From the sequence record PZ386964.1: 64,000 nucleotides of DNA. One strand, 5' to 3'. Below, in pieces: positions 2,187 to 48,785 of the stretch (the first letter of the stretch is position 1; every line of letters begins with the position of its first letter). The notes beneath the pieces were generated by a model that did not search any database, was not told where the DNA came from, and saw only the letters and a list, made by a program, of their open reading frames with translations. The position numbers and the translations under genes are program-made. The stretch comes from a phage.

Positions 2187-2192
2187 GAAAAA

Positions 2193-2218
2193 GGCCCATA
2201 TGGGCCTTTGTTTATTTT
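2193..2218 (+). terminator. Rho-independent terminator after the endolysin gene
   Basis: Perfect palindrome GGCCCATATGGGCC followed by TTTGTTTATTTT; A-run upstream, so it could also act on the minus strand. Confidence 0.7.
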
Positions 2219-2424: not shown

Positions 2425-2438
2425 AACTACCACCCATG

Positions 2439-2981: not shown

Positions 2982-3012
2982 TATAATTCACCTTTTGATT
3001 ACGAATATTAAT

Positions 3013-3040
3013 AGTATAGGCCGAAGGTTTTGAAAGTAAA
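3013..3040 (-). promoter_or_regulatory. Sigma70-like promoter for the 2439-2981 gene
   Basis: On the minus strand: -35 TTTACT (plus 3035-3040), 16-bp spacer, -10 TATACT (plus 3013-3018). Confidence 0.45.
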
Positions 3041-3050
3041 TAAGGCGAAA

Positions 3051-3085
3051 GGTAAATAAAAGAAAAGCCGGAAATTTCCGGCTTT
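3051..3085 (-). terminator. Rho-independent terminator ending the ligase / MazG / spanin transcription unit
   Basis: Palindrome GCCGGAAATTTCCGGC (3067-3082) followed on the minus strand by TTTTCTTTTATTT. Confidence 0.65.
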
Positions 3086-3157
3086 ATGTATACACTGTAT
3101 ATTAAATTCTATAAAACGGCGCGATAGATTATACGCAACAATTATTTATCCAGTGTG

Positions 3158-4132
3158 TTAAAAATACTCCATATCGGTAATATCACGGAAGCATTTATAA
3201 AGCGCAGAGCGCGGCACGTCAACGATGCCAAAGTTAAAGAATTTATACGTCAAGTATTTGTGGCGATAATTTTCGCGATTATCCCAAAGCATCTTCCGCT
3301 CTGCCATAGGCATTGAACCTGCGGACACACGGAAAGGAATCATCTCACCCTTCTCATCTACATACTTTGGATTGACTACGACAAATGATCCGAGATAACC
3401 CTTGGCAACGAGTCCTTCAGCTTCCTTTGATCGTTTTGTGCGACCAAGCTCATCAATGAACGCTTCGTTGTTATTCTCCATCATCTCGACGAAATCTATG
3501 ATCTGTCCTTCTTCGTCGGTCCACGGCTTGTCTTTCCATACATCACGCGACTTCGGCGTTGCGCGACCATGCTTGTATTTGCCCGTCCACGATTTGCCGT
3601 ATAAGCCTTCATATCCAAGCTGGTCCGCTTCGACTTGCATTGCCGCGTATTGATCCATATTCTCAATGTTTCGGTATTCAAGGGCGCGAAGGAATGGTCT
3701 GTGGCCATGGTCCAAGAGATACTGATTGACCTCAGCAACTCTAGCCCGATAGTTCGCATAACGCTTTTCAAAAGGTAAATCGGGGTCGCTGAAGTCATCA
3801 AACACCCACCATGTAAAGTTAGTTATTGCATCAGTATTCATGCACGCAGTATATGCCTGCTGCATGACGTTCTTGTCATTAGGATTGCCGTCGATGAGTT
3901 CACCATCAAGGCCGTAAATCAAATCGCCCAAGAAAAGGAACTCTTTCTTGATTTGAACGTTTCGCAGCGGCATTCCAGACGTACCCATAGGAAGCTTGTC
4001 ATAAGCCATAGCACGTATGCCATCAACCTTAAATGACAATCCGCAAGGTAACGGAACGTCTTCACCGCGTTCGATGATTTGCTTACGTTGACAGCCTTTC
4101 ATTGGCTTAAGCGCTTTGATCTCTCCTGCCAT
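3158..4132 (-). CDS. ATP-dependent DNA ligase
   Basis: Adenylation motif KVDGIR (KxDGxR), LDGELI and EGLYGK motifs typical of ATP-dependent ligases; ATG at 4132 overlaps the stop of the upstream gene. Confidence 0.75.
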   Translation of the reverse strand: MAGEIKALKPMKGCQRKQIIERGEDVPLPCGLSFKVDGIRAMAYDKLPMGTSGMPLRNVQIKKEFLFLGDLIYGLDGELIDGNPNDKNVMQQAYTACMNTDAITNFTWWVFDDFSDPDLPFEKRYANYRARVAEVNQYLLDHGHRPFLRALEYRNIENMDQYAAMQVEADQLGYEGLYGKSWTGKYKHGRATPKSRDVWKDKPWTDEEGQIIDFVEMMENNNEAFIDELGRTKRSKEAEGLVAKGYLGSFVVVNPKYVDEKGEMIPFRVSAGSMPMAERKMLWDNRENYRHKYLTYKFFNFGIVDVPRSALYKCFRDITDMEYF

Positions 4133-4725
4133 CACTCTTTCCCCTCATTCATTACTTGTTCCAGCGCATAGGCGTAAGCCTGATCAGTCGATTTGATAAA
4201 CGTGCCGTTGTACATGACACCTTTGCGGTCCTTGATGTCTTCGTAGGCCGCTTGCGCACAGTCGGATAAGCGAAGGCCATAATCATGAGCTACGCCGGAA
4301 AGGTAATCGACTGCGACCATGATGGTGACATCAATATCCATGCTCTGATTTTTAGCAATGGCGTCACCAAGCCGTCCGAGAGTCTTTGCCAAGCGAAGGA
4401 TAAACGAGTGAGGGTGGGTACCTTTGTCAGCGCAACCGCCGCCGTTGATGTCTTCGATTTTTGCACCATTTTGCGCGGCAAGGATAGTCAATACAACAAG
4501 ACAATCACCAATGTCGTCCTTGATTGCGGCCTGCAGGTCACAGATGGCCTGCTCTGTATATCCAATTTCAGGGTCAAAGAACACAAGGTCATGGAGTTGA
4601 TCAACGTGGTCGGTTAACTCCCCAAACTCGCTGATAAGCTTCGGGTATTGGTCCTTAAGGTCGCAACCTTGGATGATGTTACGGTCAGAAGCCCACTGGC
4701 GAATGTTTGCATAAATCTGTTTCAT
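4132..4725 (-). CDS. MazG-like nucleoside triphosphate pyrophosphohydrolase (putative)
   Basis: All-alpha-looking protein with an EFGELTDH acidic helix motif resembling MazG-type NTP pyrophosphatases; translationally coupled to neighbours. Confidence 0.45.
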   Translation of the reverse strand: MKQIYANIRQWASDRNIIQGCDLKDQYPKLISEFGELTDHVDQLHDLVFFDPEIGYTEQAICDLQAAIKDDIGDCLVVLTILAAQNGAKIEDINGGGCADKGTHPHSFILRLAKTLGRLGDAIAKNQSMDIDVTIMVAVDYLSGVAHDYGLRLSDCAQAAYEDIKDRKGVMYNGTFIKSTDQAYAYALEQVMNEGKE

Positions 4726-5240
4726 TTATTTTCCTTTGATGCATTGAATTGATCGATTTTTATTTTAGCCTGATTATAAGTATCAATCAAGCTATTAACT
4801 TTATCTTTTAATCGGTTTGTTTCTGCGGCGAACTGAACAAGAAATCTGACATCTTCTTCTGATAGTCCACAGTTTCCTTCTGGGATAGAGAGGCGTCCAG
4901 TGGTCGCAGAGTCGGGCACACTCCTGAGTAACTCACGGGAGCAGCTGAGTTGCTCGCGCAACTTGATATTCCCAGACTTGTAACGAGCAATAGTGTCATC
5001 AGCAACCAGTTGCGCTTCCTGGCGACCTTTCTCATATGCCGATGCCGATTCAACCTGTAAAGATGCAATTTGCTCTTCGAGTGCATTTATCTTGTCCTTA
5101 CGCTCATTAAGCGATGTCAGATATTGGTTATCCTTGGCCAGTGATGCGTTGGTTTGCTGCAGGTCTTCAACGTATGATCCAGCGGCAAACGCGCCAACAA
5201 GGGCCATAATCTTCAGGAGTGGTACAATTCTTTCTATCAT
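4722..5240 (-). CDS. Rz: Inner-membrane spanin (Rz-like)
   Basis: N-terminal transmembrane helix (IVPLLKIMALVGAFAAGSYV), coiled-coil body, overall Rz-like architecture; contains an embedded +1-frame lipoprotein ORF. Confidence 0.65.
   Translation of the reverse strand: MIERIVPLLKIMALVGAFAAGSYVEDLQQTNASLAKDNQYLTSLNERKDKINALEEQIASLQVESASAYEKGRQEAQLVADDTIARYKSGNIKLREQLSCSRELLRSVPDSATTGRLSIPEGNCGLSEEDVRFLVQFAAETNRLKDKVNSLIDTYNQAKIKIDQFNASKENK
4808..5035 (-). CDS. Rz1: Outer-membrane lipoprotein spanin (Rz1-like), embedded within Rz
   Basis: Alternate-frame ORF wholly inside Rz; basic N-region, hydrophobic core and lipobox ISSC; short Pro-containing mature part. Confidence 0.55.
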   Translation of the reverse strand: MRKVARKRNWLLMTLLLVTSLGISSCASNSAAPVSYSGVCPTLRPLDASLSQKETVDYQKKMSDFLFSSPQKQTD

Positions 5241-5250
5241 GATGCACCAG

Positions 5251-5279
5251 ATAAATAAAAGGCCGCCAATCGGCAGCCT
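5251..5279 (-). terminator. Terminator-like hairpin between the SSB-like gene and Rz
   Basis: Minus-strand RNA GGCUGCC-GAUU-GGCGGCC followed by UUUUAUUUAU. Confidence 0.5.
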
Positions 5280-5297
5280 TGTTGATTTGATTGTCGA

Positions 5298-6158
5298 TTA
5301 AAACTCTTCTGCGTCGGTCGGAGTTTCATTAACAGGGCCAGCGGCACCGCTTGCTTCTTCCTGCTTGCTGCGGTCAATGTTAACGTTGCCGCCAACTACA
5401 TCGTTGTGGAATGCTTTGGCGACTTCATACAGACCTTTGTCCTGCACCAGACCTTCCAGCTCAAACTTCAGAACTGACCAGGTGTTGCCATCTTTGGACT
5501 GAGACGCAGTACCCATGCGAACGATGTTCATGAAGGTCGGCGGAGTTTTCAGGCCCTGCGGAGTCTGAACTTTCTTCTGCTGCAGCGCGGTCATCAGCAT
5601 GCGAGACGGCTTGATCATGGAAGAAGTCAGAGACAGCATTGCGCTACCAAATTCACCAGTTTCTTCGTTCAACAGAATCACGAAGTGGTTACGTGTATCT
5701 GCGTAGTAAGGTGATTTCTTCTCGTGCACCTTGCCGTTCTCGTCTGGCACAAACACCTTACCGTTGATTTCAACAGCGCGGCCTGCTGCGACTTCTGCAT
5801 CAACGTGCTCTTTGGTGAATTCACCTTTAAAGCCTTTATCGTCGGACTCGCGACCGCCCCAAAGGATGAAGGTGCGTTTGAATGCGCAGGGGATGATCTG
5901 CACACCTTTCTTGCCGTCATACAATTCACCAGTAACGGTGTTGTACAACATGCCAGCTTTTGCGCCAGGAACGTGTTTTGGATCATCTTCGTCGACCATC
6001 GGAGACATCTTTTGCAGCACGACGATAAAAGGAATGGCATAAGCGTCGGCATCGGCACCTTCAAAGCCAGCGCCAAAATCGGTCATGTCGACAAAATCAG
6101 CCATAGCGGACATCTGGGTGTTTTTCACTGCAACTTCGGTAGTTTCTTTCTTAGACAT
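5298..6158 (-). CDS. Putative single-stranded-DNA-binding protein
   Basis: 286 aa ending in an acidic tail with terminal Phe (ETPTDAEEF), reminiscent of T7 gp2.5-type SSBs; sits in the replication block; terminator hairpin downstream. Confidence 0.4.
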   Translation of the reverse strand: MSKKETTEVAVKNTQMSAMADFVDMTDFGAGFEGADADAYAIPFIVVLQKMSPMVDEDDPKHVPGAKAGMLYNTVTGELYDGKKGVQIIPCAFKRTFILWGGRESDDKGFKGEFTKEHVDAEVAAGRAVEINGKVFVPDENGKVHEKKSPYYADTRNHFVILLNEETGEFGSAMLSLTSSMIKPSRMLMTALQQKKVQTPQGLKTPPTFMNIVRMGTASQSKDGNTWSVLKFELEGLVQDKGLYEVAKAFHNDVVGGNVNIDRSKQEEASGAAGPVNETPTDAEEF

Positions 6159-6217
6159 TTGATGTTTTCCTATAGTATCAAGTTTCGTGGCAACCTGATT
6201 TCAAGATAAAGGTTAAA

Positions 6218-6775
6218 TTACTTTTTGCTTTTAGGCAAGGTTATTTTAGCTTCTTTATACTCAAAAACGCTAATATCTTCACTAACTGGATTACCCGCTT
6301 CCAGCTGTTCTTTTACAAATGACTTCAGTGTAGCAGAATGAATGCCTTGTTTCAACGTGGCTTCAACACCATCTTCACGCAGCGCGGCAACAATCTCTTG
6401 CGCTTGCTCGATTTCTTCGCGACCGAACTCAGCCGTGACGCTGGACTTGATCAAGCCGCCGTAACCGTTGTTGACAAGCCAATCGAATACCTTCAATTCA
6501 TTTTCTTTCTTGATTGAAGCATTTACTTTTGACTCGACCTTGATTTTGGTCTTGTCTTCAAGCTTGATTTCGGACACGCCAAGCTCATCCATAACGCCAG
6601 GAAGCAGAACAGTTTTGATTTCACTGATGCGCTGCTTTTGCATATCAGCTTCATCTTCAAGCTCTGTCAAAGCTTCTTGGCGCTCTGCCAATTCCGATAC
6701 TAAGCGCGCAAGACGCTCCTGAATGCTCTCAGGAGCAACCTGCGGCAAATCATCTTCCCAATTAATATTGCTCAT
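6218..6775 (-). CDS. Hypothetical protein with N-terminal coiled coil
   Basis: 185-aa ORF coupled to the upstream gene; charged coiled-coil N-terminus; no confident family assignment. Confidence 0.5.
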   Translation of the reverse strand: MSNINWEDDLPQVAPESIQERLARLVSELAERQEALTELEDEADMQKQRISEIKTVLLPGVMDELGVSEIKLEDKTKIKVESKVNASIKKENELKVFDWLVNNGYGGLIKSSVTAEFGREEIEQAQEIVAALREDGVEATLKQGIHSATLKSFVKEQLEAGNPVSEDISVFEYKEAKITLPKSKK

Positions 6776-7035
6776 ATTTTACCTTCTTGCATTAGCCCTT
6801 CAACACGGGTCATTTGATAACGTTCAGGTTTCCAAGCCGCCAAAGCCTTCTCAGCGCCTTTTAAAGTCTTATATGCCTTGATGCCAGGCATAATGACGGT
6901 ATTCACCCCAGCACCGTTGCCATAATCAAACTCTTTTACAACGCGGAACATGCCGTCAATTTCTTTGACCAAAAGACGTTTGAACGCGATTGCGCCAGTA
7001 GCTTCATTTTTGTAACGTTCAAGGATGCGTACCAT
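6772..7035 (-). CDS. Hypothetical protein
   Basis: 87-aa ORF with an upstream sigma70-like promoter (TTGACT, 17 bp, CATAAT) and AGAGGA ribosome-binding site. Confidence 0.5.
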   Translation of the reverse strand: MVRILERYKNEATGAIAFKRLLVKEIDGMFRVVKEFDYGNGAGVNTVIMPGIKAYKTLKGAEKALAAWKPERYQMTRVEGLMQEGKI

Positions 7036-7067
7036 TTTGTATTCCTCTATTTCGTTTCGATGAAGTA

Positions 7068-7096
7068 ATTATGACTCATCTTCCGTGACAAGTCAA
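7068..7096 (-). promoter_or_regulatory. Sigma70-like promoter with conserved leader motif (upstream of the 6772-7035 gene)
   Basis: Minus strand: -35 TTGACT (plus 7091-7096), 17-bp spacer, -10 CATAAT (plus 7068-7073); leader contains CATCGAAACGAA, shared with the promoter near 14.0 kb. Confidence 0.45.
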
Positions 7097-7111
7097 ATTA
7101 TTTTTTTGATA

Positions 7112-8635
7112 TTAATTCATCTTTTTGCCGTCGAGGATGTGATCAGCAAGCATTGACTTCATACTGAGTGAACGCTGAATTTCTTCGTCGATGGTATCAA
7201 CACCAATAAAATCAACATACAACACGCTTGATTTGGTGCCGATGCGGTGATTTCGGTCTTCGGATTGTTTGCGCAGCTCGTTGTCGTAGTTGCAAGAATA
7301 ATAAATTGCCAAGTCAGCGGCGGTAAGCGTGATTCCGATGCCTGCCGCGGCTGCGTGACACACCAACACTTGCGTTCCACCGTTCTCGACTGTGTTTTTC
7401 TGGAAGTCATCAATCAAGAACTCGCGCTGCTCTTTTGATGTTTCACCGTTGTACACACCAGTGACCACGCCTTCAGACTCAAGCCAGTCCTTAATCTGGT
7501 TCATCTCTTCCTTAAAGATGGCCCAAACAATGAATTTGCGCTCTGGGTCGTCTTCCAGCACCCCTTCCACATAATCCTTAAAGGCTGTGAATCGTGGGTT
7601 GTCTTCCATGTAGACCATCTCATCATACACCTTAACAAAGCCTGATGTCACCTGCTTCATCTTGGTGCGAGATGCGATCATCTCAAACTTAACGTTTTCT
7701 TCTTCGCCTTTATACTCCATCAGATAATTGTACTCATTCTTGAGTTCATCATAGACATCGCGCTGCTTAGGCGACAACTCGAAGTCGATAAACTTGTACA
7801 CCTTCTCTGGAAGGTCCGGCAGGTATTCCGCTTTTGTCGCGCGGAAATAGTGCGGCTCCATCAGCCGGATAAGCTTGTCAAGGTTTTTGTACATCGGTCG
7901 GCCAAACTGGTCTTTGCGCGGCACTTGCGGAATGCCATAACCGTTGCCGCCGATTTTCTTGAGAATGGCCTGCATCTCTGGGTCGTGCGCTTCAAGCAGC
8001 ACTGTAAATTCAGAGTTAAATGCGCGGAACGATTTGGTGCCAAGCAAACCTGCTTCAAGGAAGTGATACTGCATGTAAATATCAGCAGGCGAGCGCGGCA
8101 GCGGCGTACCGGAAAGGATTCGACGGGCCTTTGCCAGCCGTCCCAATTCCACAACCTTGATGGAGCGTTTGGCTGTGTTATTTTTGATACGCGTCGATTC
8201 ATCAATGATCATCAAACAGCGGTACTTCTTCAGTACGGACTCAATGTGTTGATAACCGACTGGCGTGTTCACCGTGTCAATGTTGAATGAGAAGATTCGT
8301 GCAGGCACTTCGCCTTCAGGATAGTGATCAGCAAACATCTTCTCCCAAAGTGCCTTGCCCTTTTTAGTTTTCATTTTGTCATTGCCGCGCCAGTAATGAC
8401 CAATCCATTTAATGGAAAGGTGCTCTGGTGCTTCACGACGAATCCAGTTTGAGTGTACACCGTTAGGAGCGATTACAACCATGGCATCAAATGCGCCAGC
8501 GGTAAAATGCTTTTCAAACTCTGCCAAAGCGGTCCAGGTTTTGCCAAGACCCTGCTCCATGAAATAAGCAAAGTATTTTCTGCGGCCTGCTTTATCAAGC
8601 GCCAATAATTGGTGGCGCATTCCTTGTGTTTTCAT
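7112..8635 (-). CDS. SNF2-family DNA helicase / ATPase
   Basis: Walker A GLGKT, DExx box IIDEST, and a C-terminal helicase domain pattern. Confidence 0.8.
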   Translation of the reverse strand: MKTQGMRHQLLALDKAGRRKYFAYFMEQGLGKTWTALAEFEKHFTAGAFDAMVVIAPNGVHSNWIRREAPEHLSIKWIGHYWRGNDKMKTKKGKALWEKMFADHYPEGEVPARIFSFNIDTVNTPVGYQHIESVLKKYRCLMIIDESTRIKNNTAKRSIKVVELGRLAKARRILSGTPLPRSPADIYMQYHFLEAGLLGTKSFRAFNSEFTVLLEAHDPEMQAILKKIGGNGYGIPQVPRKDQFGRPMYKNLDKLIRLMEPHYFRATKAEYLPDLPEKVYKFIDFELSPKQRDVYDELKNEYNYLMEYKGEEENVKFEMIASRTKMKQVTSGFVKVYDEMVYMEDNPRFTAFKDYVEGVLEDDPERKFIVWAIFKEEMNQIKDWLESEGVVTGVYNGETSKEQREFLIDDFQKNTVENGGTQVLVCHAAAAGIGITLTAADLAIYYSCNYDNELRKQSEDRNHRIGTKSSVLYVDFIGVDTIDEEIQRSLSMKSMLADHILDGKKMN

Positions 8636-9054
8636 GACAATTCCTCTAAATACTTGATGATGTGATGAATAGTTCCCTTCACGATTATCTCACGTTGAAC
8701 GTCTGCAGTATTATAACGCTTTAATTCAATAGAAGGGTGGACTAAATAAAACATCTTCTCAGAATCAACCTTAAGCAGAACAAATGATGGGTATTTCCAA
8801 TCATTCCACGAAGAAAGAAAGCTGCATTGACCTTTCTCAAATGCATTTCTGAAAGGTGCAGTGGTGACCCTTGCAGGCCACGATTCAAAGAACTTCATTT
8901 CAAGCCAAAAGCCGCGCCCTTTCCGGTTGGTGCCGATTACGTCCGGCACGCCATCACCAGTCATCGACTCGATTCGTTGAAGCTTCAATACTGACTCTGA
9001 ATGCTTCTTTAAAGGTACGAATATGTATTTCTGCTCACGGTTATTTGTTGCCAT
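8632..9054 (-). CDS. VRR-NUC-like nuclease (PD-(D/E)xK fold)
   Basis: GVPDVIG and WLEMKF motifs consistent with VRR-NUC; immediately downstream of the SNF2 helicase, a common pairing. Confidence 0.55.
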   Translation of the reverse strand: MATNNREQKYIFVPLKKHSESVLKLQRIESMTGDGVPDVIGTNRKGRGFWLEMKFFESWPARVTTAPFRNAFEKGQCSFLSSWNDWKYPSFVLLKVDSEKMFYLVHPSIELKRYNTADVQREIIVKGTIHHIIKYLEELS

Positions 9055-11938
9055 CTGGATACACCTGTTTGATAACGTCGACTATGAACATGTCAATGCC
9101 TTCAAGCTTGCGACCTTTCATCAGGAAGAATGCGCCGTTCCCGACGTTTTCAGCAATGTATTTCCCGTACTTCTGGAACTTTTCTGGACGAATCCTGAAG
9201 CGCATTGGCGAGTCGGTCGAGTCGTCTTTGCACATAAGGTCGATGAACTGAGTCTCAAGCTTGTTTCCGTACTGGTCAAACTCTGCGTAGCGGCCATCAG
9301 CTTGAAGACCTTTTTTAAGCTTGCCGTGCTTTGTATAGATGCCGCGCTCAAGTCGTTTACGGATGCGTGTCGCTTCGTTCTCGTCTGCAAGCACTTTCTT
9401 TGTCAACTTGCCGATTACTATTGCACGCTCGTCATCACCGACTTCCTTCATCTGGCGTATTGAAGCGCCGGACGTCACGCCAATAAGATAAGGGTCATTA
9501 TACGCCCAGCCAAACTTTGTGTGCATCTCTGTAAGGTCGCCGTATTTGACTTCAGCATTGGCCAATGCATCCTTTTGCTTTTGCGTTAAGGTTCCGGCTT
9601 CACGTGCTTCGATATACTTCATCGCCTTCACCATTCCGTATCCTTTCGCGTTCATGATGCCGCCGATTAGCTTTCCGTTCGCGATGGTCCAGTTCATCGA
9701 AGAGTGATCAGGGTCGATTGGCACATAATCCACGCCTTCTTTCGCAAGTTCACGTAGTATCGCAATCGTCTGGTCTTCGTCCTTAGCAGCGCGTAAGCAG
9801 GCAGCGGCAAATTCCAACGGGTAGTGTCGCTTAAGCCACAAAGTCCAGTAGGTCACGACCGCGTATGACACGGAGTGTGACTTGTTAAAGCCCCATGACC
9901 CGAACGTGGCCATCGCTTGCCAAAGCTTTCTTGCATCCGCTTCCGGTACACCGTTATTTATTGCTCCTGCAACGAAGTCTTCGCCAAGCTTGTTAAAGTA
10001 TTCTTCACCCTTACGGCCTGACATCGCCTTACGTACAGCGGACGTTTTCGCCCAGTCAAATGAACCAATCTCTTTAACCACGGCCATGATTTGCTCTTGG
10101 TAAAGAAACACGCCGTAAGTCTCTTTTAAGTACGGCTCAAGCTGCGGCACGTCGTATTCAATCGGCGCACGCCCTGCCGCGCGTTCAATGTATTTCTGGG
10201 CCATACCGGACGACAACGGGCCAGGTCGACCCAAAGCTGTCAGGTTGTCGATTTTGTTAAAGTTATCGACGTGAACAAAGTTTGTTACTGAGCGTACAGC
10301 ATCACCTTCAAACTGGAAGATGCCTGACATCTTGTTTTCGTTAAGAATGTCAAGGACGCTTTGATCATCAAGCTTGATTCCGTAGAGCGTTTCAGCATCA
10401 ATAACGCCTGTATCAGAAATAATGCCGAGAGTACGAAGGCCCAGCGCATCAAGCTTCAAAAGGTTTAGGTATTCGCTGTCAGGCTTATCGATTTGCGCAA
10501 TCCCTTCTGCAGTTACAGTACAGTAATCAGAGATTGGGTCATTACACACAATGATTCCCGCTGCGTGAACACCTGTGTGAGACGGGTGAATCTCAAGGTC
10601 ACCCATGCAACGCGCGGCGTCAGGATATTTCGCCACGAACTCTTGACCCGTGGTCGTTGTTGCAAAGGTATCCTCCAGGCCGTGACCATAACGGGCGTCA
10701 CCGGATGAGTATTCAAGCAGTGCGTTTTTAATGTTGGCTGTTTCGTGGTATCCAATGTTGAACTTCTTACCAACTTGAGCCATTACTGAGTTGGCCTTAA
10801 GCGTGTTGATGTTGCCAAGCTTTGCAACGTTCATTTCGCCGTATTTCTCTTTAAGATAATCAAACACCATATAGCGTTTGGTATCTTCAAAGTCGATGTC
10901 GATGTCAGGAAGGTCGGCGCGGCTTACGTCAATGAATCTGGCAAACAGCAGCTTATACGGGATTGGGTCCACTTCCGTGATGCCGAGGCAATAGCAAACA
11001 AGTGAACCGGCTGATGAGCCGCGCGCAGGACCGACGAGCATTTTTGTTTTTGCGAATCGTACAAGGTCCGCTACTACCAGAAAGTATGAGTCGAAATCTT
11101 TCAGCTGAATCTGGTGAATTTCTTCGTTGAAGCGGTCCTCATATTCCTGAGTCCATTCTTTGATGTGACCTGCTTTTAGACGGTACTCCATCCCCTCACG
11201 CGCAAGCTTTACCATGTCACCAGCAAGGTGAATAATCGGTGCCTTACGCAATTTCAGGTCAAGTCCGACTATGCCGTTTGCTATGTCAACAGCATTGGCC
11301 GTTGCCTGATTGAGCTCATCTTCAGTCAAGATGCCTTTAAGCTGTTTGCGCAAGTCTTCCGCGTCAACGATGCAGTGCGGCTTGACCGTGTCGCGCACTT
11401 CCCAAGCATAAGCGAAGTCAACGTGCTCAGGAGAAGGCATGTGATTGTATCCGGTTAAAACCAGCGGCCTTCCACTGCTACGATGAGCCAATGCCTGGCG
11501 CTTTGCCAAAAGGAACGACGATGGGTTGACGTCTATATAGTCGTAGTCCTCTGGCCGCAGCAACTCCACAGCACCGCCACAGAATTTAACGACGCCATCG
11601 AGCGCACCGAACTCTGAACGGGTAAGTCCACCGCGCTGCGTTGCAAGTGTTGTAGCATTGTAAAAAGATTTTAAGTCAAGGGCCAATATCCAAGCCTTCG
11701 GTTTGAATCCCTTTTTAGGGTCCGCATCAGGGTCGATGATTGGAATCTCCATCCCAAACATAGGCTTAATATCATTTTTCTGGCATTCCTTTTCCCAGCG
11801 AACGTGACCCCATGTATTGTTATCAACTAATGCCGCGACTTCGCAACCCAACTCTTTGAGCCGTGCTATAATTTCAGGATGCCGTCCATATACTTCTTTG
11901 AACGTGTAACCGCTGCGAACTCTCAATTGTGGAAACAT
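9041..11938 (-). CDS. dnaE: DNA polymerase III alpha subunit-like replicative polymerase (DnaE type)
   Basis: 965 aa; N-terminal PHP-like region and the motif GSSAGSLVCYCLGITEVDP matching the DnaE signature. Confidence 0.85.
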   Translation of the reverse strand: MFPQLRVRSGYTFKEVYGRHPEIIARLKELGCEVAALVDNNTWGHVRWEKECQKNDIKPMFGMEIPIIDPDADPKKGFKPKAWILALDLKSFYNATTLATQRGGLTRSEFGALDGVVKFCGGAVELLRPEDYDYIDVNPSSFLLAKRQALAHRSSGRPLVLTGYNHMPSPEHVDFAYAWEVRDTVKPHCIVDAEDLRKQLKGILTEDELNQATANAVDIANGIVGLDLKLRKAPIIHLAGDMVKLAREGMEYRLKAGHIKEWTQEYEDRFNEEIHQIQLKDFDSYFLVVADLVRFAKTKMLVGPARGSSAGSLVCYCLGITEVDPIPYKLLFARFIDVSRADLPDIDIDFEDTKRYMVFDYLKEKYGEMNVAKLGNINTLKANSVMAQVGKKFNIGYHETANIKNALLEYSSGDARYGHGLEDTFATTTTGQEFVAKYPDAARCMGDLEIHPSHTGVHAAGIIVCNDPISDYCTVTAEGIAQIDKPDSEYLNLLKLDALGLRTLGIISDTGVIDAETLYGIKLDDQSVLDILNENKMSGIFQFEGDAVRSVTNFVHVDNFNKIDNLTALGRPGPLSSGMAQKYIERAAGRAPIEYDVPQLEPYLKETYGVFLYQEQIMAVVKEIGSFDWAKTSAVRKAMSGRKGEEYFNKLGEDFVAGAINNGVPEADARKLWQAMATFGSWGFNKSHSVSYAVVTYWTLWLKRHYPLEFAAACLRAAKDEDQTIAILRELAKEGVDYVPIDPDHSSMNWTIANGKLIGGIMNAKGYGMVKAMKYIEAREAGTLTQKQKDALANAEVKYGDLTEMHTKFGWAYNDPYLIGVTSGASIRQMKEVGDDERAIVIGKLTKKVLADENEATRIRKRLERGIYTKHGKLKKGLQADGRYAEFDQYGNKLETQFIDLMCKDDSTDSPMRFRIRPEKFQKYGKYIAENVGNGAFFLMKGRKLEGIDMFIVDVIKQVYPDGNK

Positions 11939-29364: not shown

Positions 29365-29597
29365 CATCCAACCTTAAAGCCCGTTTGTTATTCATCAAGC
29401 CGCATGTGCCGTATAAGATTAGCAAGCGCACCTGGCTGAACATCTACAACCGCAGTGGCGACCGCTGCTTGTACAAGGCAAAGCGACGCAAGAAGGTCTA
29501 TTTAAAAGCGGTAATGTCGCAGCCCGTCGATGCATTTAACATCGGCGAAAATGAATTGTCAATCGGCTATCAAATTGAACTCGGAGTAAAGAAATGA
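29361..29597 (+). CDS. Hypothetical small basic protein
   Basis: ATGA-coupled internal start (MTSNLKARL...). Confidence 0.45.
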   Translation: MTSNLKARLLFIKPHVPYKISKRTWLNIYNRSGDRCLYKAKRRKKVYLKAVMSQPVDAFNIGENELSIGYQIELGVKK

Positions 29598-30100
29598 AAA
29601 TCGAACAACTCGAAGCAGTATTGGAAATGGCCGTAAAGGCAGGCGCAATCAAAAGCTATCGTCGCGAGAAGTCCGACGATGCTGCGCACTTTTGTCGCAA
29701 CTTCTATATCGTCGGCAACCTTAACGACCACTACACTATCGAGTGGTATATAAATATAATGACGCTTAAGTCGCGCACCATGGAGCTTTGGTGTGATGAC
29801 ATTTGCTTATCCAACACCCATCCATCCTACGACGTTGCGTTAGCATTCTATTACGGAAGCCGTCAACCTGTCGCCCACATCGGTGAGAAGTATGAGCACT
29901 TGAAGGAGAAGCCAACGAAAAATGACGGATGGATTGATTGGGACAGCGGCGAGAATCCGGTGCCTGGTAAGAAGGTCATGTATAAGTTGCGCGACGGCGA
30001 TGAATCAAGAAAGCCTGTTCTTTCAGATGATTTGAGATGGGAGATGGTTGACGATTCTTATGCAGCTGACATCATTGCTTATCGGGTCGTGGAGGAATAA
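29594..30100 (+). CDS. Hypothetical protein sharing a C-terminal ~50-aa domain with the product of 31270-31689
   Basis: C-terminus ...GENPVPGKKVMYKLRDGDESRKPVLSDDLRWEMVDDSYAADIIAYRVVEE is paralogous to the C-terminus of the 31270-31689 product. Confidence 0.55.
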   Translation: MKIEQLEAVLEMAVKAGAIKSYRREKSDDAAHFCRNFYIVGNLNDHYTIEWYINIMTLKSRTMELWCDDICLSNTHPSYDVALAFYYGSRQPVAHIGEKYEHLKEKPTKNDGWIDWDSGENPVPGKKVMYKLRDGDESRKPVLSDDLRWEMVDDSYAADIIAYRVVEE

Positions 30101-30770: not shown

Positions 30771-31273
30771 CTAACAAAACGCAACGCATCAATTTTGAAG
30801 GCAAAGAATATGAAATAGATGCTCGTGCAAAGTTTATCGCACGGGATTCTAACGGCACCGTCTGGACGTATGAAGAGAAGCCTGCATGGAACGAGCGACA
30901 TGGCCAGTGGGTTGGCCAGTGGGGATATGCAATCGGCGATTCACTTTGGTGCAAGCAAATTGGCGATGGTAAAATTTTCGAAGAAAACAGACCAGCGTCA
31001 CGTGATTCATTAAAAGAAGTCGCAACAATCAAGGTGCAAGAACGAATGGCATCGACCAACCAATACTACGCAGTCGGGCAGCGTGACATCGAGCAACTCG
31101 ACGAGGGCGGCTATTATACGCGCCACATCTATGCCATAACGCATGAAGGACTCTACAGCAAGTCGGACATCGCCGCTGAACTGGCCCATCGTGACTTGCA
31201 AATTGACATGTTGCGTCTAGCTCTTGAGAAGCAAACACAAATCGCTATTGGAATTTTGGAGAAGTTAAAATGA
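30767..31273 (+). CDS. Hypothetical protein
   Basis: 168-aa ORF, ATGA-coupled. Confidence 0.5.
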   Translation: MTNKTQRINFEGKEYEIDARAKFIARDSNGTVWTYEEKPAWNERHGQWVGQWGYAIGDSLWCKQIGDGKIFEENRPASRDSLKEVATIKVQERMASTNQYYAVGQRDIEQLDEGGYYTRHIYAITHEGLYSKSDIAAELAHRDLQIDMLRLALEKQTQIAIGILEKLK

Positions 31274-31689
31274 TCCAACGTTATGATGTAGACTATTGCA
31301 CGCAGCACGCCTGCACTTGTGAAATGGAAAAGGATGATGAAGGCGGTTACGTTGAGTATGAAGCTTATGCCGCGCTGGAAGCGAAATACAGTGAAGCGCA
31401 ACGCGAGTTGGTTGCATTACGCTCACAGGTCCGTGATGCGTCGGCGCTCGTTAAGCAGTTGCACGACGTTGTTGCTACTATAGGCGTGGATGATGATGCG
31501 CCGAAGGAGGAAGCGTGGACCGTGTGGTTTGGTGGCGCGAATCCGGTGCCTGGGAAGATGGTTGAGTTTGAATTACTCAACGGTTATAAATCAAAAGAGG
31601 CCGTTCCTTCGGATAGTTTGACATGGGATAAAGTCACAAGCCCGACTGGTGCAAAGATCATTGCTTATCGGGTCGTTAAGGAGGGGTGA
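31270..31689 (+). CDS. Hypothetical protein, paralogous C-terminal domain (NPVPGK ... IIAYRVV)
   Basis: C-terminus ...GANPVPGKMVEFELLNGYKSKEAVPSDSLTWDKVTSPTGAKIIAYRVVKEG matches that of the 29594-30100 product. Confidence 0.55.
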   Translation: MIQRYDVDYCTQHACTCEMEKDDEGGYVEYEAYAALEAKYSEAQRELVALRSQVRDASALVKQLHDVVATIGVDDDAPKEEAWTVWFGGANPVPGKMVEFELLNGYKSKEAVPSDSLTWDKVTSPTGAKIIAYRVVKEG

Positions 31690-32225
31690 TGGGCGGCTTT
31701 TGGCGTAAAGCGAAATACTCTAAAGAGTTGCATTACTTCTTAAAAGATGAAGGCATAAGCATTTGCGGCAGGTATAAAAGGGATGGCAATTCAACTTTGC
31801 AAATTGACAAGAAGGCCGATTGGTTGCTCAAGGAAGAGTGCACCGTTTGCCGCGAGCGTTTAGATAGAAAAGTGAAAACGGTTGACTACATAAAGGAGCT
31901 TCAAAGCAGGTGCAAAAGTCCGCAGGAGTTCGCCATTGCTCTTTGGGGTGATCACCCTGAATTAAGAAAGGAATGGTTAAAGACTGATGCGATCAACTCT
32001 ATTTTTAAAATGAAGTATATGACTACCGCCAGATATAAAATGGAAAAATCAGTCATTAAGAAGGTATTATCTTATTGGAGGGATACGGTTGACATTGTAA
32101 AAATAAAGAAATACCAAAAGGAAGTATTGCTGGAATTGGAAAGGATTGGTTATAAAGTCACCAATAAAATGATAGAGGAAGAGATAAAAAGACGGACTGA
32201 CAAAGGATTGATGCCTAAATTGTAG
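31686..32225 (+). CDS. Hypothetical Lys-rich protein with a Cys cluster; AT-rich 3' half
   Basis: 179-aa ORF; CGRYKRDG ... CTVCRERL cysteines; the last ~230 nt are visibly AT-rich compared with neighbours; last gene before the repeat locus. Confidence 0.5.
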   Translation: MMGGFWRKAKYSKELHYFLKDEGISICGRYKRDGNSTLQIDKKADWLLKEECTVCRERLDRKVKTVDYIKELQSRCKSPQEFAIALWGDHPELRKEWLKTDAINSIFKMKYMTTARYKMEKSVIKKVLSYWRDTVDIVKIKKYQKEVLLELERIGYKVTNKMIEEEIKRRTDKGLMPKL

Positions 32226-32299
32226 CTAATAAACGGACGCTGCTTTACGTGTTTTGAATAATGGGATGTGTACAATGGGTCGCTTTATGCGGCCTTTTG

Positions 32300-32530
32300 T
32301 CGTTTTTGTTGGAAATTTTGAAGTGAGTGGCGTGGACCGTGGTGGTTTGAGGCTTGGTTGATACGTATGGAATTTAGGATATTGTGGATGAAAATAATAA
32401 ATAAAATGGAAATTTGTATTTATTTTTGGAGTATGAGCATTTGATTTTGGATTTTAGTGTGCGGATTTTGGAGAGTGAACCGTGGTGTGTGGTGGCGAAA
32501 GCCGCGCCGTGCCTGGATTCTATGGTTGAA
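32300..32530. repeat. Strand-skewed (GT-rich top strand) repeat region upstream of iteron locus A
   Basis: Repeated GGA(A)ATTTTG-like units and two direct copies of (G/A)ACCGTGGTG (32338-32350, 32478-32490), with an inverted copy at 32893-32905; TGTGGATGA at 32383-32391 is one mismatch from a DnaA-box complement. Confidence 0.4.
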
Positions 32531-32539
32531 GAGTACACT

Positions 32540-32812
32540 CTTACGGATAGGTTTTTATCCGTATCATGGCGCTAGGGTGCGCCGCGCCTGGATTTGTACA
32601 CTGAATCTTACGGATGATACGGATGATACGCCATTTTTCCTTATTGTAACCAGAATTATTTCAAAAATTAATTAACTCCATTTTGAATTAATTTAAATTA
32701 ATTTTTTCTACATCCTCATACTTATGTTAATTTATATATTTAACGTATTATCCGTAAGATATAAGTAAAAACAAAGACTTGCGGCAATACGGATGATACG
32801 TCATGATACGCT
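32540..32812. repeat. Iteron locus A: TACGGATGA-type repeats in both orientations flanking a ~100-bp AT-rich core
   Basis: Hairpin TACGGATA-6 nt-TATCCGTA (32542-32563); tandem ACGGATGAT twice (32610-32627); AT-rich 32641-32745 containing AATTAATTTAAATTA; inverted copy TATCCGTA (32749-32756); further TACGGATGATACG (32788-32800). Confidence 0.6.
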
Positions 32813-33024
32813 TCAACCAGCCAACTGCGGCTAAGTCATTGATTTGCATAACAAGCGGCGAAAGGGATGGATTTCTTTTATACGTATCAAACAGTACACC
32901 ACGCACCACGGTCCGTTATCCATTCAGCACTATGATTTGTGTACGTTTATAGCCATAATGAACATCAATCTGCACTTGAATATAATGTCCATCCATTGTA
33001 TAATTCACACTATTAATTTGCACT

Positions 33025-33513
33025 ATGGGATTTTGCACTATGAGTCAAGATTATGTAGCGATGCCTGAAGACTTTGAAGACCCGCGATTTGCAGAGCACA
33101 ATCAGGCTTTATTCGATGAGTTCATTGACCTTGTTATTCAGGGCCATGACATGCGCGCAGCTTTTGCACTAGTATTTGGAATGGAAGTTGCAACGGATAA
33201 CTACACTGGCCAGCGAATCCTTTGCGCGCAACGCAATCCATACTACAAGATGCGCTTCAAAAAGCGTATGGAAGAGATGCCACTCAAGGATTTGTGGAGC
33301 GTAAAAGGTGCAATTCACAATTTGGTCAAGCTTGTGCGTGATCCAGAAGTCGCGGCATCAGCCAAGCTTAATGCTATTCGTGAACTGAATATCATCTACG
33401 GCATCACGATGATTGATGAAAACGGCAATAGTAAAATGGGCCGTTCTATGGACGATTTCTACAAGGATTTTGGAGAGGCGGCCAAAGAAGGTGAGCAATT
33501 CTCCCGCCACTAG
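33025..33513 (+). CDS. Hypothetical protein, possibly DNA-binding; small-terminase-like at low confidence
   Basis: 162-aa ORF whose start codon sits inside the AATTTGCACTAT motif; helical N-terminal region then charged coiled coil; hairpin after the stop. Confidence 0.45.
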   Translation: MGFCTMSQDYVAMPEDFEDPRFAEHNQALFDEFIDLVIQGHDMRAAFALVFGMEVATDNYTGQRILCAQRNPYYKMRFKKRMEEMPLKDLWSVKGAIHNLVKLVRDPEVAASAKLNAIRELNIIYGITMIDENGNSKMGRSMDDFYKDFGEAAKEGEQFSRH

Positions 33514-33627
33514 CCAATTTGCACTATAAAACGGCCCTAGAACACATTTTCTCCACTTCTAGGGCCATCGGTAATACGACGGGGAAGGTTACAACCATAA
33601 ACGCGTTAGAAAGTGTATTATTATAAG

Positions 33628-33891
33628 TCATCTTTTAGTCACTTTCCGTAACAATTTACGACCTTCAACCGTCCAATCGAACGACTCCACCAGCAGATTT
33701 GCACCATAACCCAAGACGATGCGCCCTTTCTCGTTATCGACCCGCCAACAAGTCTCGAATAGCATTCGATTTGCACTATTAACTATTGCCGCAACGCGCG
33801 TTGGGTAAGCGCAATTTGCACTATGGTCATAAAGGGATAAGGTGCGACCACTTCCGATGGACAACGTAGCAATGAGAATAAGCGTATTCAT
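33628..33891 (-). CDS. Hypothetical small protein with hydrophobic N-terminus
   Basis: 87-aa ORF; C-terminal region paralogous to the C-terminus of the 33942-34568 product; carries two copies of the DNA motif (encoding SAN). Confidence 0.4.
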   Translation of the reverse strand: MNTLILIATLSIGSGRTLSLYDHSANCAYPTRVAAIVNSANRMLFETCWRVDNEKGRIVLGYGANLLVESFDWTVEGRKLLRKVTKR

Positions 33892-33941
33892 AAGCCACCA
33901 ATTTGCACTATGAAAAGCGACCCCGAAGGGCCGCCATTCAA

Positions 33942-34568
33942 TTAGATGATTTGGAATGTGTAGGATTTATTACCGAACTCGAAGTTCAAGCGCCCAGCTT
34001 CCTTAAGCTTCATGCGGAAGCGAATATGCTTGCTATCCGGTAGGCCCAGCGCGGCGAACGCTACGCGGACCGATTTGAACTCTCCTACACCCTCGACCAT
34101 AACGCCGTTACGGGTGAGACGCTTTTGCGCCACTTCCTTATTGTCCCAACTTTTTGCAATGCCTTCGCTATTCGAACGGCGATGGGAAGGAGTTCCATTT
34201 TGCACTACGCAATTTGCACTATCGTTTAAACCGCTCTTAACGAAGGCTTCATACTCTTCGTCGGTCATCGCGTCGAGTTCTTCCTGAGTCGGCTCGGCCT
34301 TTTTAACTACCGCACGCGCCTTATGCGTTTTTACATCGCTGGACACTTCCTCGCGCGGCTTCGCGTCGGGGATGGGCGATTCGTTGGACGGCTCATCGAG
34401 CGCGTTTAAGGACTCGATTAACGCGATTACGCGAGTCTCGGCGGTCCGGCGGTCCGCAAACTTCTTAATCGGCTTCGAACCGGAATTTGCATTATAAAAT
34501 GCAACGAGGTCGGCGGTCTTAGTTGCGATAACGTCGCCGCTAGTCGAGAAACGATTTAAGCTAACCAT
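33942..34568 (-). CDS. Hypothetical protein
   Basis: 208-aa ORF with TAGGAG site; C-terminal part (DSANC...WDNKE...NGVMVEGVG) paralogous to the 33628-33891 product. Confidence 0.5.
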   Translation of the reverse strand: MVSLNRFSTSGDVIATKTADLVAFYNANSGSKPIKKFADRRTAETRVIALIESLNALDEPSNESPIPDAKPREEVSSDVKTHKARAVVKKAEPTQEELDAMTDEEYEAFVKSGLNDSANCVVQNGTPSHRRSNSEGIAKSWDNKEVAQKRLTRNGVMVEGVGEFKSVRVAFAALGLPDSKHIRFRMKLKEAGRLNFEFGNKSYTFQII

Positions 34569-35002: not shown

Positions 35003-35029
35003 TTATAATATAGTGTAGAAAAAAGTAAA
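35003..35029 (-). promoter_or_regulatory. Possible minus-strand promoter for acidic paralog A (divergent from the 35157 gene promoter)
   Basis: Minus strand: -35 TTTACT (plus 35024-35029) within an inverted copy of the AAAGTGCTTTACT element; -10 TATAAT (plus 35003-35008) at a short 15-bp spacing. Confidence 0.3.
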
Positions 35030-35072
35030 GCACTTTTTCGATAAAAATGAGATAAATTATTTTATCTTTTTC

Positions 35073-35100
35073 TTTACTTCTTCGTACACTCGCATATACT
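35073..35100 (+). promoter_or_regulatory. Sigma70-like promoter for the 35157-35459 gene
   Basis: -35 TTTACT (35073-35078), 16-bp spacer, -10 TATACT (35095-35100); shares TTTACTTCTTCGTACACT with the next promoter. Confidence 0.5.
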
Positions 35101-35156
35101 TGTTTATATCGAGACGGGCGATGTCCCTTCCTTCTACTAGCATCGGGAGCTTTATT

Positions 35157-35459
35157 ATGACTACTTTAATCTCTTCCATCCTTACTTACGACGAAGACCG
35201 CTTAACCGTTCGCTCTCTTATCGCCGCCGTTAACGCGGAACTAGAATCTAGCGCCATTAAGGTCCGCGCGGTCGCCTTCATCGGCCTTTCCTTCGACGAT
35301 ATGAAGTATGCCGAACGTAGCGCTATCCGCTTCGCGAAGACCGACGACGAAGCCGTTACCCTTATCGAGACGGTTACGCCGCGCGGCGAAGCGTTAATTA
35401 TCGTCGAGTATATCGACGTAGAAGGCGATAAGGCTTATAAATATTTTATCGCAGAATAA
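35157..35459 (+). CDS. Small acidic protein, possibly a third member of the same family
   Basis: 100 aa; GGGAG site; promoter TTTACT, 16 bp, TATACT upstream; acidic composition similar to the flanking paralogs. Confidence 0.5.
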   Translation: MTTLISSILTYDEDRLTVRSLIAAVNAELESSAIKVRAVAFIGLSFDDMKYAERSAIRFAKTDDEAVTLIETVTPRGEALIIVEYIDVEGDKAYKYFIAE

Positions 35460-35470
35460 CGAAAAAGTGC

Positions 35471-35499
35471 TTTACTTCTTCGTACACTAAGACTATAAT
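35471..35499 (+). promoter_or_regulatory. Sigma70-like promoter for acidic paralog B
   Basis: -35 TTTACT (35471-35476), 17-bp spacer, -10 TATAAT (35494-35499). Confidence 0.55.
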
Positions 35500-35905: not shown

Positions 35906-36557
35906 TCCCTATCTCGATGCGCTTCTCCGCGAAAACTCCTTTATCCTTCCCTTCTTCGTCGCATAATCTTCATCGAGATGCGCCTTAGTTCGCATAACAG
36001 GTATTACGTTAAATGGAGAACATCGCGTAAGTCCTTGTTTTATATAGACACCTATATCGGACCGTTAGGGCGGGTCGCGTAAGTCGTTGTTTTATAAAGG
36101 CGCAAAACTTTCCCTTCGTTCCGAACTAAAACGAGAAATATGCCGACCCTTCGCCGGAAAATAGTACGCATGCGAAATTACATGCATCTAGAATAATCCC
36201 CACCGATATTATCCTACACGCAATCATTCGCTTTCGAATCATTATGCTTCATATTATTATGCGTCGAATCATTCGCTTTCGAATTGTAACGCTGGAAACT
36301 GTAACGTCGATTGATTATTGCGTTCGTGTGGTTTTTATGGCATGGGTCTTTTGGTGCGTTTTGCTACTTGATGGAATTTGCAGTACACTAATCAAAATAC
36401 GACACATTTGGTCCACTAACTTTTCAAAGAAAAAGTCCTAGACAGTACCGTACTATTTTGTACCCACAGGAAATTTGCAGTACACTCCTGTGCGGCAGGC
36501 AAAATAAAGGGCCGCACCAAGCGACCCACGATTCACGGTTAAATCAACAAGCACCCA
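35906..36557. repeat. ORF-free, repeat-rich ~650-bp region
   Basis: Direct repeat CGCGTAAGTC(C/G)TTGTTTTATA (36014 and 36076); palindrome ATTCGCTTTCGAAT twice (36225, 36270); AATTTGCAGTACACT twice (about 36366 and 36470); hairpin GTGCGGC-14 nt-GCCGCAC. Confidence 0.5.
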
Positions 36558-48421: not shown

Positions 48422-48461
48422 ATCGCCTGGCAATGGATTGCCGCAGGATTTTACGCGTATA

Positions 48462-48723
48462 ATGACGTATCATCCGTATCAAGTAAGTAGTTGTTTTCGA
48501 AAGAATCTTACGGGTGATACGGATGATACGCGTTGCCGCGATACTTTATAGGAATTCAAATAAATTAATTTAAAATTATATATCTAATTTAATTTTATTT
48601 TTTTATAAACTCTTATATATGAAAAGTATCCGTATCATCCGTATCATCCGTAGCACACCAGTGATAGCGCGGCTTATACACCGATACGGATAAAAATACG
48701 CCTCATTTTATCCGTATCATCCG
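48462..48723. repeat. Iteron locus B: long inverted repeat of GATACGGATGATACG-type units around an AT-rich core, plus a 13-bp-arm hairpin
   Basis: Left arm CTTACGGGTGATACGGATGATACGCG (48506-48532); AT-rich 48533-48618 containing AATTAATTTAAAATTA; right arm GTATCCGTATCATCCGTATCATCCGTAGC (48618-48646); hairpin GATACGGATAAAA-10 nt-TTTTATCCGTATC (48675-48710). Confidence 0.6.
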
Positions 48724-48785
48724 TATCACACTAATTAAGTCGCGGCTATATCGGTTGTTATACATATTCAAACCATAATTATTGT

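Follow-up and report, generated by a model that had tools for sequence, protein, structure and literature searches.

The intergenic gap at positions 32226-33039 (814 bp) of phage sequence record PZ386964.1 lies between an open reading frame (ORF) at 31686-32225 (+) and an ORF at 33040-33513 (+), the latter encoding a small terminase subunit (TerS). The whole 64,000-nucleotide stretch that was analysed is referred to as the window. The left part of the gap, 32300-32530, is a G+T-rich, C-poor tract, which a first-pass annotation had described as carrying GGA(A)ATTTTG-type repeats, direct and inverted copies of a short word around an "iteron locus A", and a DnaA-box-like site that would fit recruitment of the host initiator to an origin. 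Counted outwards from the physical left end of the virion DNA, the tract lies at a distance of ~150-380 bases, next to the TerS gene. Given this position, it most likely belongs to a packaging or end-forming region and not to a DnaA-dependent replication origin.

BLAST comparison identified the window as a Wifcevirus, i.e., an E. coli myophage related to WFC, WFH, Mansfield, ECML-117 and Bas98-101. The direct terminal repeat (DTR) is ~3.7 kb long in WFC and WFH (PMC6563267), and a DTR of 3,673 bp was predicted by PhageTerm for Mansfield (PMC6753283). The GenBank records of WFC, WFH, Ro157lw, SP13 and Mansfield all have as their first base the equivalent of window position 32680, as judged from exact homology. 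These five records open with ATTTT(G/A)AA, 360 bp 5' of the TerS gene, and a sixth record, ECO71P1, terminates 11 nt inside from the same position. Since the five records begin at the equivalent of 32680, the physical left end of the virion DNA is placed by homology in the AT-rich core of iteron locus A (32640-32743, no strand assigned), between 32679 and 32680. The sequence at the DTR start reads AACTCC/ATTTTGAA, or in wider context ...TTAACTCC/ATTTTGAATT.... The inverted 13-mer arms at 32605-32621 and 32744-32760 have their dyad centre at 32682.5, 3 nt away from the end. A comparable arrangement was seen in a relative whose TerS is 43% identical (L147/L148): its contig holds both DTR copies and starts in an AT-rich core, and 4-5 nt separate its end from the midpoint of its inverted iteron arms, which are 34 nt long and differ from those of the window. 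The rule that the end lies at the dyad of inverted iterons thus holds across genera.

The gene at 33040-33513 (+) was identified as TerS by profile comparison. A profile of its product and six homologues matches PDB 7UXE, the TerS of phage E217, with E=1.6e-45, and the gene is annotated as TerS in Mansfield. The AlphaFold model of the protein has a pLDDT of 73.6. Two overlapping sigma-70-like promoters (32959-33004, +; 10/12 matches each) lie 5' of the gene. With the virion DNA end mapping inside by homology, a linked TerS gene and repeated motifs that flank the cut and are conserved in relatives, the locus has the features of a terminase recognition and cleavage region.

These repeated motifs are centred on the word ACCGTGGTG, which occurs exactly three times in 64 kb, at 32336 (+), 32479 (+) and 32904-32912 (-). 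The two direct copies and the inverted copy of the first-pass annotation are therefore all exact, although the inverted one had been put a few bases off, at 32893-32905, and they do bracket iteron locus A. The copies are embedded in extended inverted arms, one pair at 32334-32368 and 32880-32914 (35 nt, 77% complementary), the other at 32469-32494 and 32897-32922 (26 nt, 81%). Comparison of the window copies with those of L016, a metagenomic relative whose TerS is 68% identical, defines the repeat, by sequence, as an 18-nt bipartite box, GRACCGTG-N4-GTGGTG. Exact bipartite matches are found in the window at 32477 (+) and 32897 (-). Allowing ≤3 mismatches, 19 boxes were counted in the window against 5.9 expected, and 12 in L016 against 1.2 expected. 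Box 1 (GCGTGGACCGTGGTGGTTTGAGGC, 32330-32353, +) has an intact half-site, GGACCGTG, and a degenerate second half, and forms the left arm of the 35-nt inverted repeat. Box 2 (GAGTGAACCGTGGTGTGTGGTGGC, 32473-32496, +) contains the exact motif at 32477-32494. The inverted box lies within the DTR (top strand CAGTACACCACGCACCACGGTCC, 32892-32914, -), with its exact bipartite match at 32897-32914. Relative to the end, the three boxes are located at -344 (+), -201 (+) and +217 (-). Two GCGCCGYGCCTGGATT boxes (GCC boxes; 32504-32519 and 32579-32594, together spanning 32504-32594, +) are each followed by GTACAC and an CTTACGGAT iteron half-site. Three more (+) copies of GRACCGTG are present at 54-63 kb. 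The box matches with ≤3 mismatches are all on the (+) strand from 20 kb to the end, and the next three beyond the end are all on the (-) strand.

Conservation was assessed in an alignment of 14 Wifceviruses, and words were compared across five flank families, including that of L016. The alignment is nearly invariant rightward from ~32660, inside the DTR, and splits into four unrelated flank families left of the end, so that conservation shifts sharply at the end itself. The inverted box is invariant and in the same place in all 14 phages. Upstream (+) copies within 1 mismatch, lying in the diverged flanks, number one or two in most relatives. L016 carries two perfect direct 20-mers, GAACCGTGAACTGTGGTGTA, outside its end in a flank of just 118 nt and an inverted GAACCGTGTAACGTGGTG inside, and also keeps the cut-site word TTAACTCCATTTTGAA. 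The layout of direct boxes outside and an inverted box inside is kept across the four Wifcevirus flank families and L016, in line with the bracketing noted in the first-pass annotation. GTGGTGT is the only 7-mer common to all five flank families (0/500 shuffles), and ACCGTG, CCGTGG, GCGCCG and GCCGCG are each common to four of the five. L016 has in addition a copy of this (-) box with its CAGTACAC prefix, in the same context (CAGTACACCACGCACAACGGTTC), ~30 nt beyond its DTR right boundary. The window holds a split version of this prefixed box, CAGTACAC-N21-GGTCCAC at 36381-36416, at the same distance beyond its own right boundary. Searching viral contigs for the 15-mer AATTAACTCCATTTT gave unspecific matches that could not be used. 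We also considered whether the inverted boxes delimit an invertible segment or a miniature mobile element. This was rejected, as the orientation is the same in all 14 relatives, the left side is variable and the right one conserved, no recombinase gene is nearby and the second iteron locus, locus B, is devoid of boxes.

The compositional tract proper extends from 32241 to 32556 (+). It is non-coding, hypervariable between flank families and the most G+T-rich stretch of the window, which bears out the earlier description of the top strand. Positions 32300-32530 comprise 54 A, 19 C, 74 G and 84 T (G+T = 0.68, C = 8%). The two most G+T-rich 100-nt stretches of the window are located at 32261-32360 (0.75) and 32407-32506 (0.72), and over 230 nt the maximum of 0.704 compares with a mean of 0.497 and a standard deviation (sd) of 0.037. 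In all four Wifcevirus flank families G+T amounts to 0.64-0.73 at -450 to -200 from the end, and in distant relatives to 0.57-0.61 at this position. Within the genus, it is the composition of the tract, as read from these alignments, and not its sequence that is conserved. On the (+) strand of 32300-32600 the pattern GGA[AT]0-2TTT, picked after the data were seen, has six matches where 0.13 would be expected, spaced by 58, 39, 41, 14 and 127 nt, and no other part of the window is as dense in it. A local excess of the GGA(A)ATTTTG-type repeats thus exists, but TRF detected no tandem, head-to-tail array in 32300-32530, the GGA(W)TTT units were not found in the other flank families and are lineage-specific, and GGAAATTTTG with ≤2 mismatches shows no window-wide enrichment. 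A host origin of the tract was ruled out, with 0 matches in 5,426 E. coli genomes.

At the level of RNA the tract shows little structure of its own. Its bottom strand (32% C, 8% G) is essentially unstructured, folding with -16.5 kcal/mol over 231 nt, and the fold z-scores of -1.5 for the (+) and -0.4 for the (-) strand are not those of a structured non-coding RNA. Scans of the locus against Rfam (E≤1) and with ARAGORN returned no RNA family and no tRNA. When the wider segment 32320-32930 is folded as a single strand, long-range pairs nest within one another (z = -3.2). A helical periodicity of AA/TT is weak in the tract: its 10.5-bp peak barely exceeds the 95th percentile of shuffles, uncorrected across periods.

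The 13-mer TACGGATGATACG is present in four copies at locus A and in seven at locus B, against 1.07 expected, and at both loci at least three copies of a 12-22-nt iteron lie by an AT-rich region; 32300-32530 itself holds no such set. At locus A, the left arm (32603-32631, +) consists of two overlapping 13-mers, and its 29-nt block recurs at locus B (48503-48531). The right arm (32744-32800, no strand assigned) has 13-mers at 32744-32756 (-) and 32788-32800 (+) and is invariant in the 14 relatives. Locus B (48450-48730) is located between a head-fibre-like gene and the head maturation protease gene, 5' of the latter, with its seven copies arranged as two (+), the core and (-) copies. Blocks of 29 nt and 25 nt are common to it and locus A, and the 16 nt with which the genome begins recur there in inverted orientation (48576-48561). 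No GRACCGTG boxes and no AACTCC, the word preceding the end, were found at locus B. The boxes and the G+T-rich tract are specific to locus A, whereas the iteron module is present at both loci.

A polar arrangement of short motifs extends beyond the boxes. In L016, the half-site GAACCGTG occurs 12 times against 0.36 expected (2190-10760), in coding and non-coding DNA, with eight (+) copies left and four (-) copies right of the equivalent of the end (~5679). The copies embedded in genes are in different reading frames and are therefore motifs at the DNA level, not the protein level. This polarity suggests an orientation-dependent signal, though it is confounded with convergent gene orientation. 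The boxes carry CGTGGTGG and TGTGGTGG, each 2 mismatches from the E. coli Chi site GCTGGTGG, and no exact or 1-mismatch copy of Chi was found in 32226-32680. Exact Chi sites, all on the (-) strand, are present nine times against 0.11 expected in L148 (4899-6616) and seven times in a further lineage, L017 (323-4348). They cluster just inside the left end, in an orientation that suits RecBCD entry from that end. Polar arrays close to the end thus characterise this phage group. The window has one exact and three 1-mismatch Chi sites, at 32814, 33507, 33687 and 34818, all on the (-) strand, and a composite, CCAC(C/T)AGC-N2-ATTTGCAC(T/C)AT, joins Chi to the TTGCACTAT motif. A further polar array, (A/G)AT-T(T/C)GCACTA(T/C), occupies the first ~1.8 kb of the DTR (33018-34214, also 34485). 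It counts nine copies in the window against 1.8 expected, all on the (+) strand even inside (-) strand genes, and is conserved in three more distant lineages (L016 5887-6867, L148 5224-6120 and L017 480-1347).

Several further features lie around these elements. An intrinsic terminator at 32277-32305 (+), consisting of a GGGTCGC...GCGGCCT hairpin and a T-run, ends the upstream (+) operon. It is kept in most relatives, and its T-tail is the start of the G+T-rich tract. A similar hairpin lies past the opposite DTR boundary at 36500-36528 (-) (TGGGTCGCTTTATGCGGCC and TGGGTCGCTTGGTGCGGCC, respectively), and since the two face the repeat from both sides, they suggest that the DTR is transcriptionally insulated from the flanking operons. 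Weak leftward promoter-like sites (9/12 matches) are found in the AT-rich core. The cumulative GC skew mirrors gene orientation only. The right boundary of the DTR (36351-36432, no strand assigned) has been called at two places 81 nt apart, 36351 by Mansfield, Ro157lw and WFH and 36432 by WFC, while the left boundary is base-identical in the five records; it may be that the right end is less precise or more difficult to place. It falls in or beside the third most G+T-rich 100-nt stretch of the window (36275-36374), a patch that turns C+A-rich within ~100 nt. The two terminator hairpins are the only resemblance between the left flank and the right-boundary region, the overall similarity of which is not significant (score 36; shuffle maximum 40). 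Inside the DTR, a 33-nt inverted repeat (35011-35043 and 35457-35489; 88% complementary, 413 nt apart) brackets the ORF 35100-35459 in an AT-rich patch.

A third direct box, GCGTGGACCGTGTGGTTTGGTGGC, is located upstream at 31513-31536 (+) inside ORF 31270-31689, where it codes for AWTVWFGG. The surrounding ~80 nt (31486-31565), which encode AWTVWFGGANPVPGKMVE, align with 32447-32529 of the tract with a score of 47 (shuffle mean 25, sd 3.6, maximum 43). The tract counterpart holds box 2 and the first GCC box. This nucleotide match is significant, whereas a tblastn comparison of the tract with the upstream ORFs gave no significant similarity at the protein level. ORFs 29594-30100 and 31270-31689 have in common a C-terminal domain of ~60 residues with 48% identity and the motif W..W..G.NPVPGK ... 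IIAYRVV. In Pbunavirus SCUT-S1 (L018, 1310-1485) and Serratia phage SMP (L019, 1190-1290), the top strand 5' of TerS is C+A-rich; these Pbunavirus and Myosmarvirus stretches carry CCACCAC/CCACCAGC words, parallel to the position of the inverted box in the window. Several Pbunavirus records start ~616-619 bp 5' of TerS.

We propose that the tract is the variable outer arm of a terminus or packaging-initiation region, in which the boxes would be protein-binding sites framing the cut together with the inverted copy, and we give this proposal an even chance of being right. Read from left to right, the region would comprise the terminator of the upstream operon, a G+T-rich spacer with two direct boxes, the two GCGCCGYGCCTGGATT boxes, the inverted 13-mer iterons around the AT-rich core with the end at 32679/32680, the inverted box 217 nt inside, the promoters and the TerS gene. 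Sequence comparison establishes where the end lies, by homology, what the TerS gene is and how the boxes are conserved and oriented; we infer beyond this that the boxes bind a sequence-specific protein, most plausibly the neighbouring TerS or a partner of it, and that they take part in packaging or in making the end. Sitting on either side of the cut in opposite orientation, this protein would wrap or loop ~400-550 bp of DNA and so expose the AT-rich core to the nuclease. The boxes would be carried by the G+T-rich spacer, with its own sequence left unconstrained. In favour of the proposal are the five record starts at the equivalent of 32680, close to the dyad centre, the similar position of the end in L147/L148, the adjoining TerS gene, the sharp shift of conservation at the end, the box words common to the flank families, the matching layout of L016 with its further box past the right boundary, the excess of boxes and the long-range pairing of 32320-32930.

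A number of observations weigh against this proposal. The position of the end in this phage is carried over from its relatives, and the homologous TerS of E217 shows no appreciable DNA binding in vitro, according to a review (PMC9611059). Bas99 has no upstream copy within 1 mismatch of ACCGTGGTG and retains a weaker half-site only. The upstream boxes are degenerate in some relatives and may therefore be dispensable, and no clear outer bracket was found in L148, the 43%-identity relative. Terminase sites are not usually scattered with strict polarity, as GAACCGTG is over ~8.5 kb in L016. Box 2 and the first GCC box are collinear with coding sequence in ORF 31270-31689, and a duplicated gene fragment may therefore have left part of the tract behind as a relic. 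Finally, locus B, for which no genome end is known, has the 13-mer/AT-core module too. This module by itself is thus not enough to specify the end, and it may act in replication or regulation.

The iterons and the AT-rich core near the tract may have an origin function, and the first-pass annotation had pointed to an origin as well. Under such a reading the boxes and the G+T-rich tract would be accessory elements and DnaA would be recruited via TGTGGATGA. An AT-rich core set among inverted and tandem 13-mer iterons is a classical origin layout, the presence of the module at two loci is easier to account for with origins than with a unique packaging site, and in DTR phages origins and genome ends can be close to each other, as for phiOL and phiOR of T7. 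The DnaA-like 9-mer is indeed present at 32383-32391 (TGTGGATGA; TCATCCACA on the (-) strand). However, boxes with ≤1 mismatch number 12 in the window against 14.7 expected, one of them in the tract, and no above-chance cluster of TTATCCACA or TTWTNCACA boxes by an AT-rich element was found there. The site is confined to the flank family of the window, where it is present in the window and RCIP0319; the 12 remaining aligned relatives lack it (12/14). Given a frequency at expectation and the lack of conservation, we judge it a chance match. No initiator gene was identified beside either locus, the neighbouring ORFs being without Pfam or PHROG function except for TerS, and the GC skew follows gene orientation. 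The tract is without iterons, and the dyad of locus A holds the DNA end with TerS next to it. Literature searches yielded no account of an origin or of pac elements in Wifcevirus. Recruitment of DnaA to an origin is not supported, and a replication origin of this kind is on the whole unlikely. Another idea is that loci A (32.6 kb) and B (48.6 kb) would be nick-type initiation sites, and that the dyad of module A is where the left end is made. The polar boxes, together with the G+T-rich 3'-ending strand just outside the end, would then act as orientation-dependent recombination or anti-exonuclease signals, as a concatemer end invades its sister and the DTR is re-synthesised. We regard this idea as highly doubtful; if true, a single element would link the making of the end to the duplication of the repeat and to replication.

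The remaining alternatives concern the nature of the tract and of its repeats. It would be a largely non-functional relic if debris of gene fragments or local duplications had accumulated at a recombination-prone junction of variable flank and DTR, with the repeats as paralogous remnants. The alignment of ~80 nt of the tract with the AWTVWFGGANPVPGKMVE coding sequence (z ~6), the four unrelated flank versions in close relatives, the lineage-specific GGA(W)TTT units and the poor upstream boxes of Bas99 all fit this picture. Yet the box words are the only ones common to all flank families, L016 retains two perfect 20-mers in a flank of 118 nt as well as the inverted copy, its GAACCGTG copies lie in differing frames, and G+T richness is kept in every family despite replaced sequence, which makes a relic rather unlikely. 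Alternatively, the boxes might be orientation-dependent signals, either for a translocating enzyme, akin to the control of a helicase-nuclease by Chi, or in sense-strand transcription or RNA. The boxes would then converge on the end instead of serving as terminase sites, and the G+T-rich tract would be a dense patch of signals or a G+T-rich single strand preferred by RecA. The polarity of GAACCGTG in L016 and of the box matches in the window, the (-) strand Chi arrays of L148 and L017 and the presence in the boxes of TGGTGG, the 3' six bases of Chi, argue in this direction. Against it, the boxes are at least 2 positions off Chi and the tract lacks exact or 1-mismatch copies, the polarity is confounded by operons converging near the end, the (+) GRACCGTG copies at 54-63 kb are distant, and no cognate enzyme is known; we consider such signals quite improbable. 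A compositional insulator is also conceivable, in which a C-rich, G-poor bottom-strand RNA would offer rut-like loading sites for Rho, so that leftward transcription from the AT-rich core or the DTR is halted before it enters the upstream operon in antisense; a T5-like injection stop is a variant of this idea. The conserved composition without conserved sequence, the unstructured bottom strand, the leftward promoter-like sites and the similar hairpins flanking the DTR are compatible with it, and the injection-stop region of T5 is a repeat-rich tract at a repeat boundary. However, the leftward promoter matches are weak, the conserved boxes and their inverted partner would be left unexplained, G+T richness is weak in L016 and L148, and two-step injection is not known for these phages. 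This renders an insulator or injection stop very improbable.

The proposed terminus region can be compared with known packaging sites. The pac region of SPP1 (pacL-pacC-pacR) has short boxes on both sides of the cut, at or near the TerS gene, and looping or wrapping of the DNA has been proposed. The SPP1 boxes were proposed to be TerS contacts (PMC9611059). Repeated boxes on both sides of the end, near the TerS gene, are found here as well. In contrast to the headful packaging and permuted ends of SPP1, the Wifcevirus ends are fixed with a 3.7-kb direct repeat, and the boxes are 18-nt bipartite motifs, inverted and 400-550 bp apart, which from the sequence alone are candidate TerS sites. At the pac site of P1, also a headful phage, both sides of the cut carry Dam-methylated TGATCA/G hexamers, all within 162 bp. 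Motif clusters flank a central cleavage region in both cases, but there is no GATC-based motif here. The cos site of lambda (cosQ-cosN-cosB) produces 12-nt cohesive ends and no terminal repeat. It resembles the present locus in the partial dyad at the nicking site, in terminase-binding repeats on the packaged side, where the DTR here has the inverted box and the TTGCACTAT array, and in an upstream element on the opposite side, the position of the tract. The motifs are unrelated, however, and a DTR is present here and absent in lambda.

Phages with terminal repeats offer further parallels. The T7/T3 concatemer junction involves pacB and pacC, the short-repeat arrays SRL and SRR and hairpin-primed duplication of the repeat. 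Fixed ends, a DTR that needs duplication in maturation and non-coding short or inverted repeats just outside are common to these phages and the Wifceviruses. The T7 repeat, however, is 160 bp long and its processing depends on the phage RNA polymerase, whereas the repeat is 3.7 kb here and no phage RNA polymerase is known; nor is there any sequence similarity to this locus. T5 has a repeat-rich non-coding tract at its first-step-transfer stop, at the inner boundary of a long terminal repeat with small early genes, and DnaA-box-like sequences have been noted in the injection-stop region. A repeat-rich non-coding tract by the boundary of a long terminal repeat is seen in both, but two-step DNA entry is not known for Wifcevirus and sequence similarity is missing. 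Iteron origins such as lambda ori, plasmid oriV and P1 oriR share with loci A and B the 13-mer iterons flanking an AT-rich core. They differ from the present case, where no initiator gene was identified, the DNA end lies in the core, the tract is without iterons and the DnaA box is insignificant.

For annotation, the locus shows that iterons, an AT-rich core and a DnaA-like box can mark a terminus as readily as an origin. For TerS of the E217 type, as found in Pbunavirus, Wifcevirus and relatives, the structure has been solved and no DNA target is known. The boxes and the dyad iterons at a defined end, 360 bp from the TerS gene, would be candidate recognition sequences for this protein family. 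A rebooting system is available for vB_Eco4M-7 (PMC11074155), and the locus represents a tractable case for how long DTRs are delimited.

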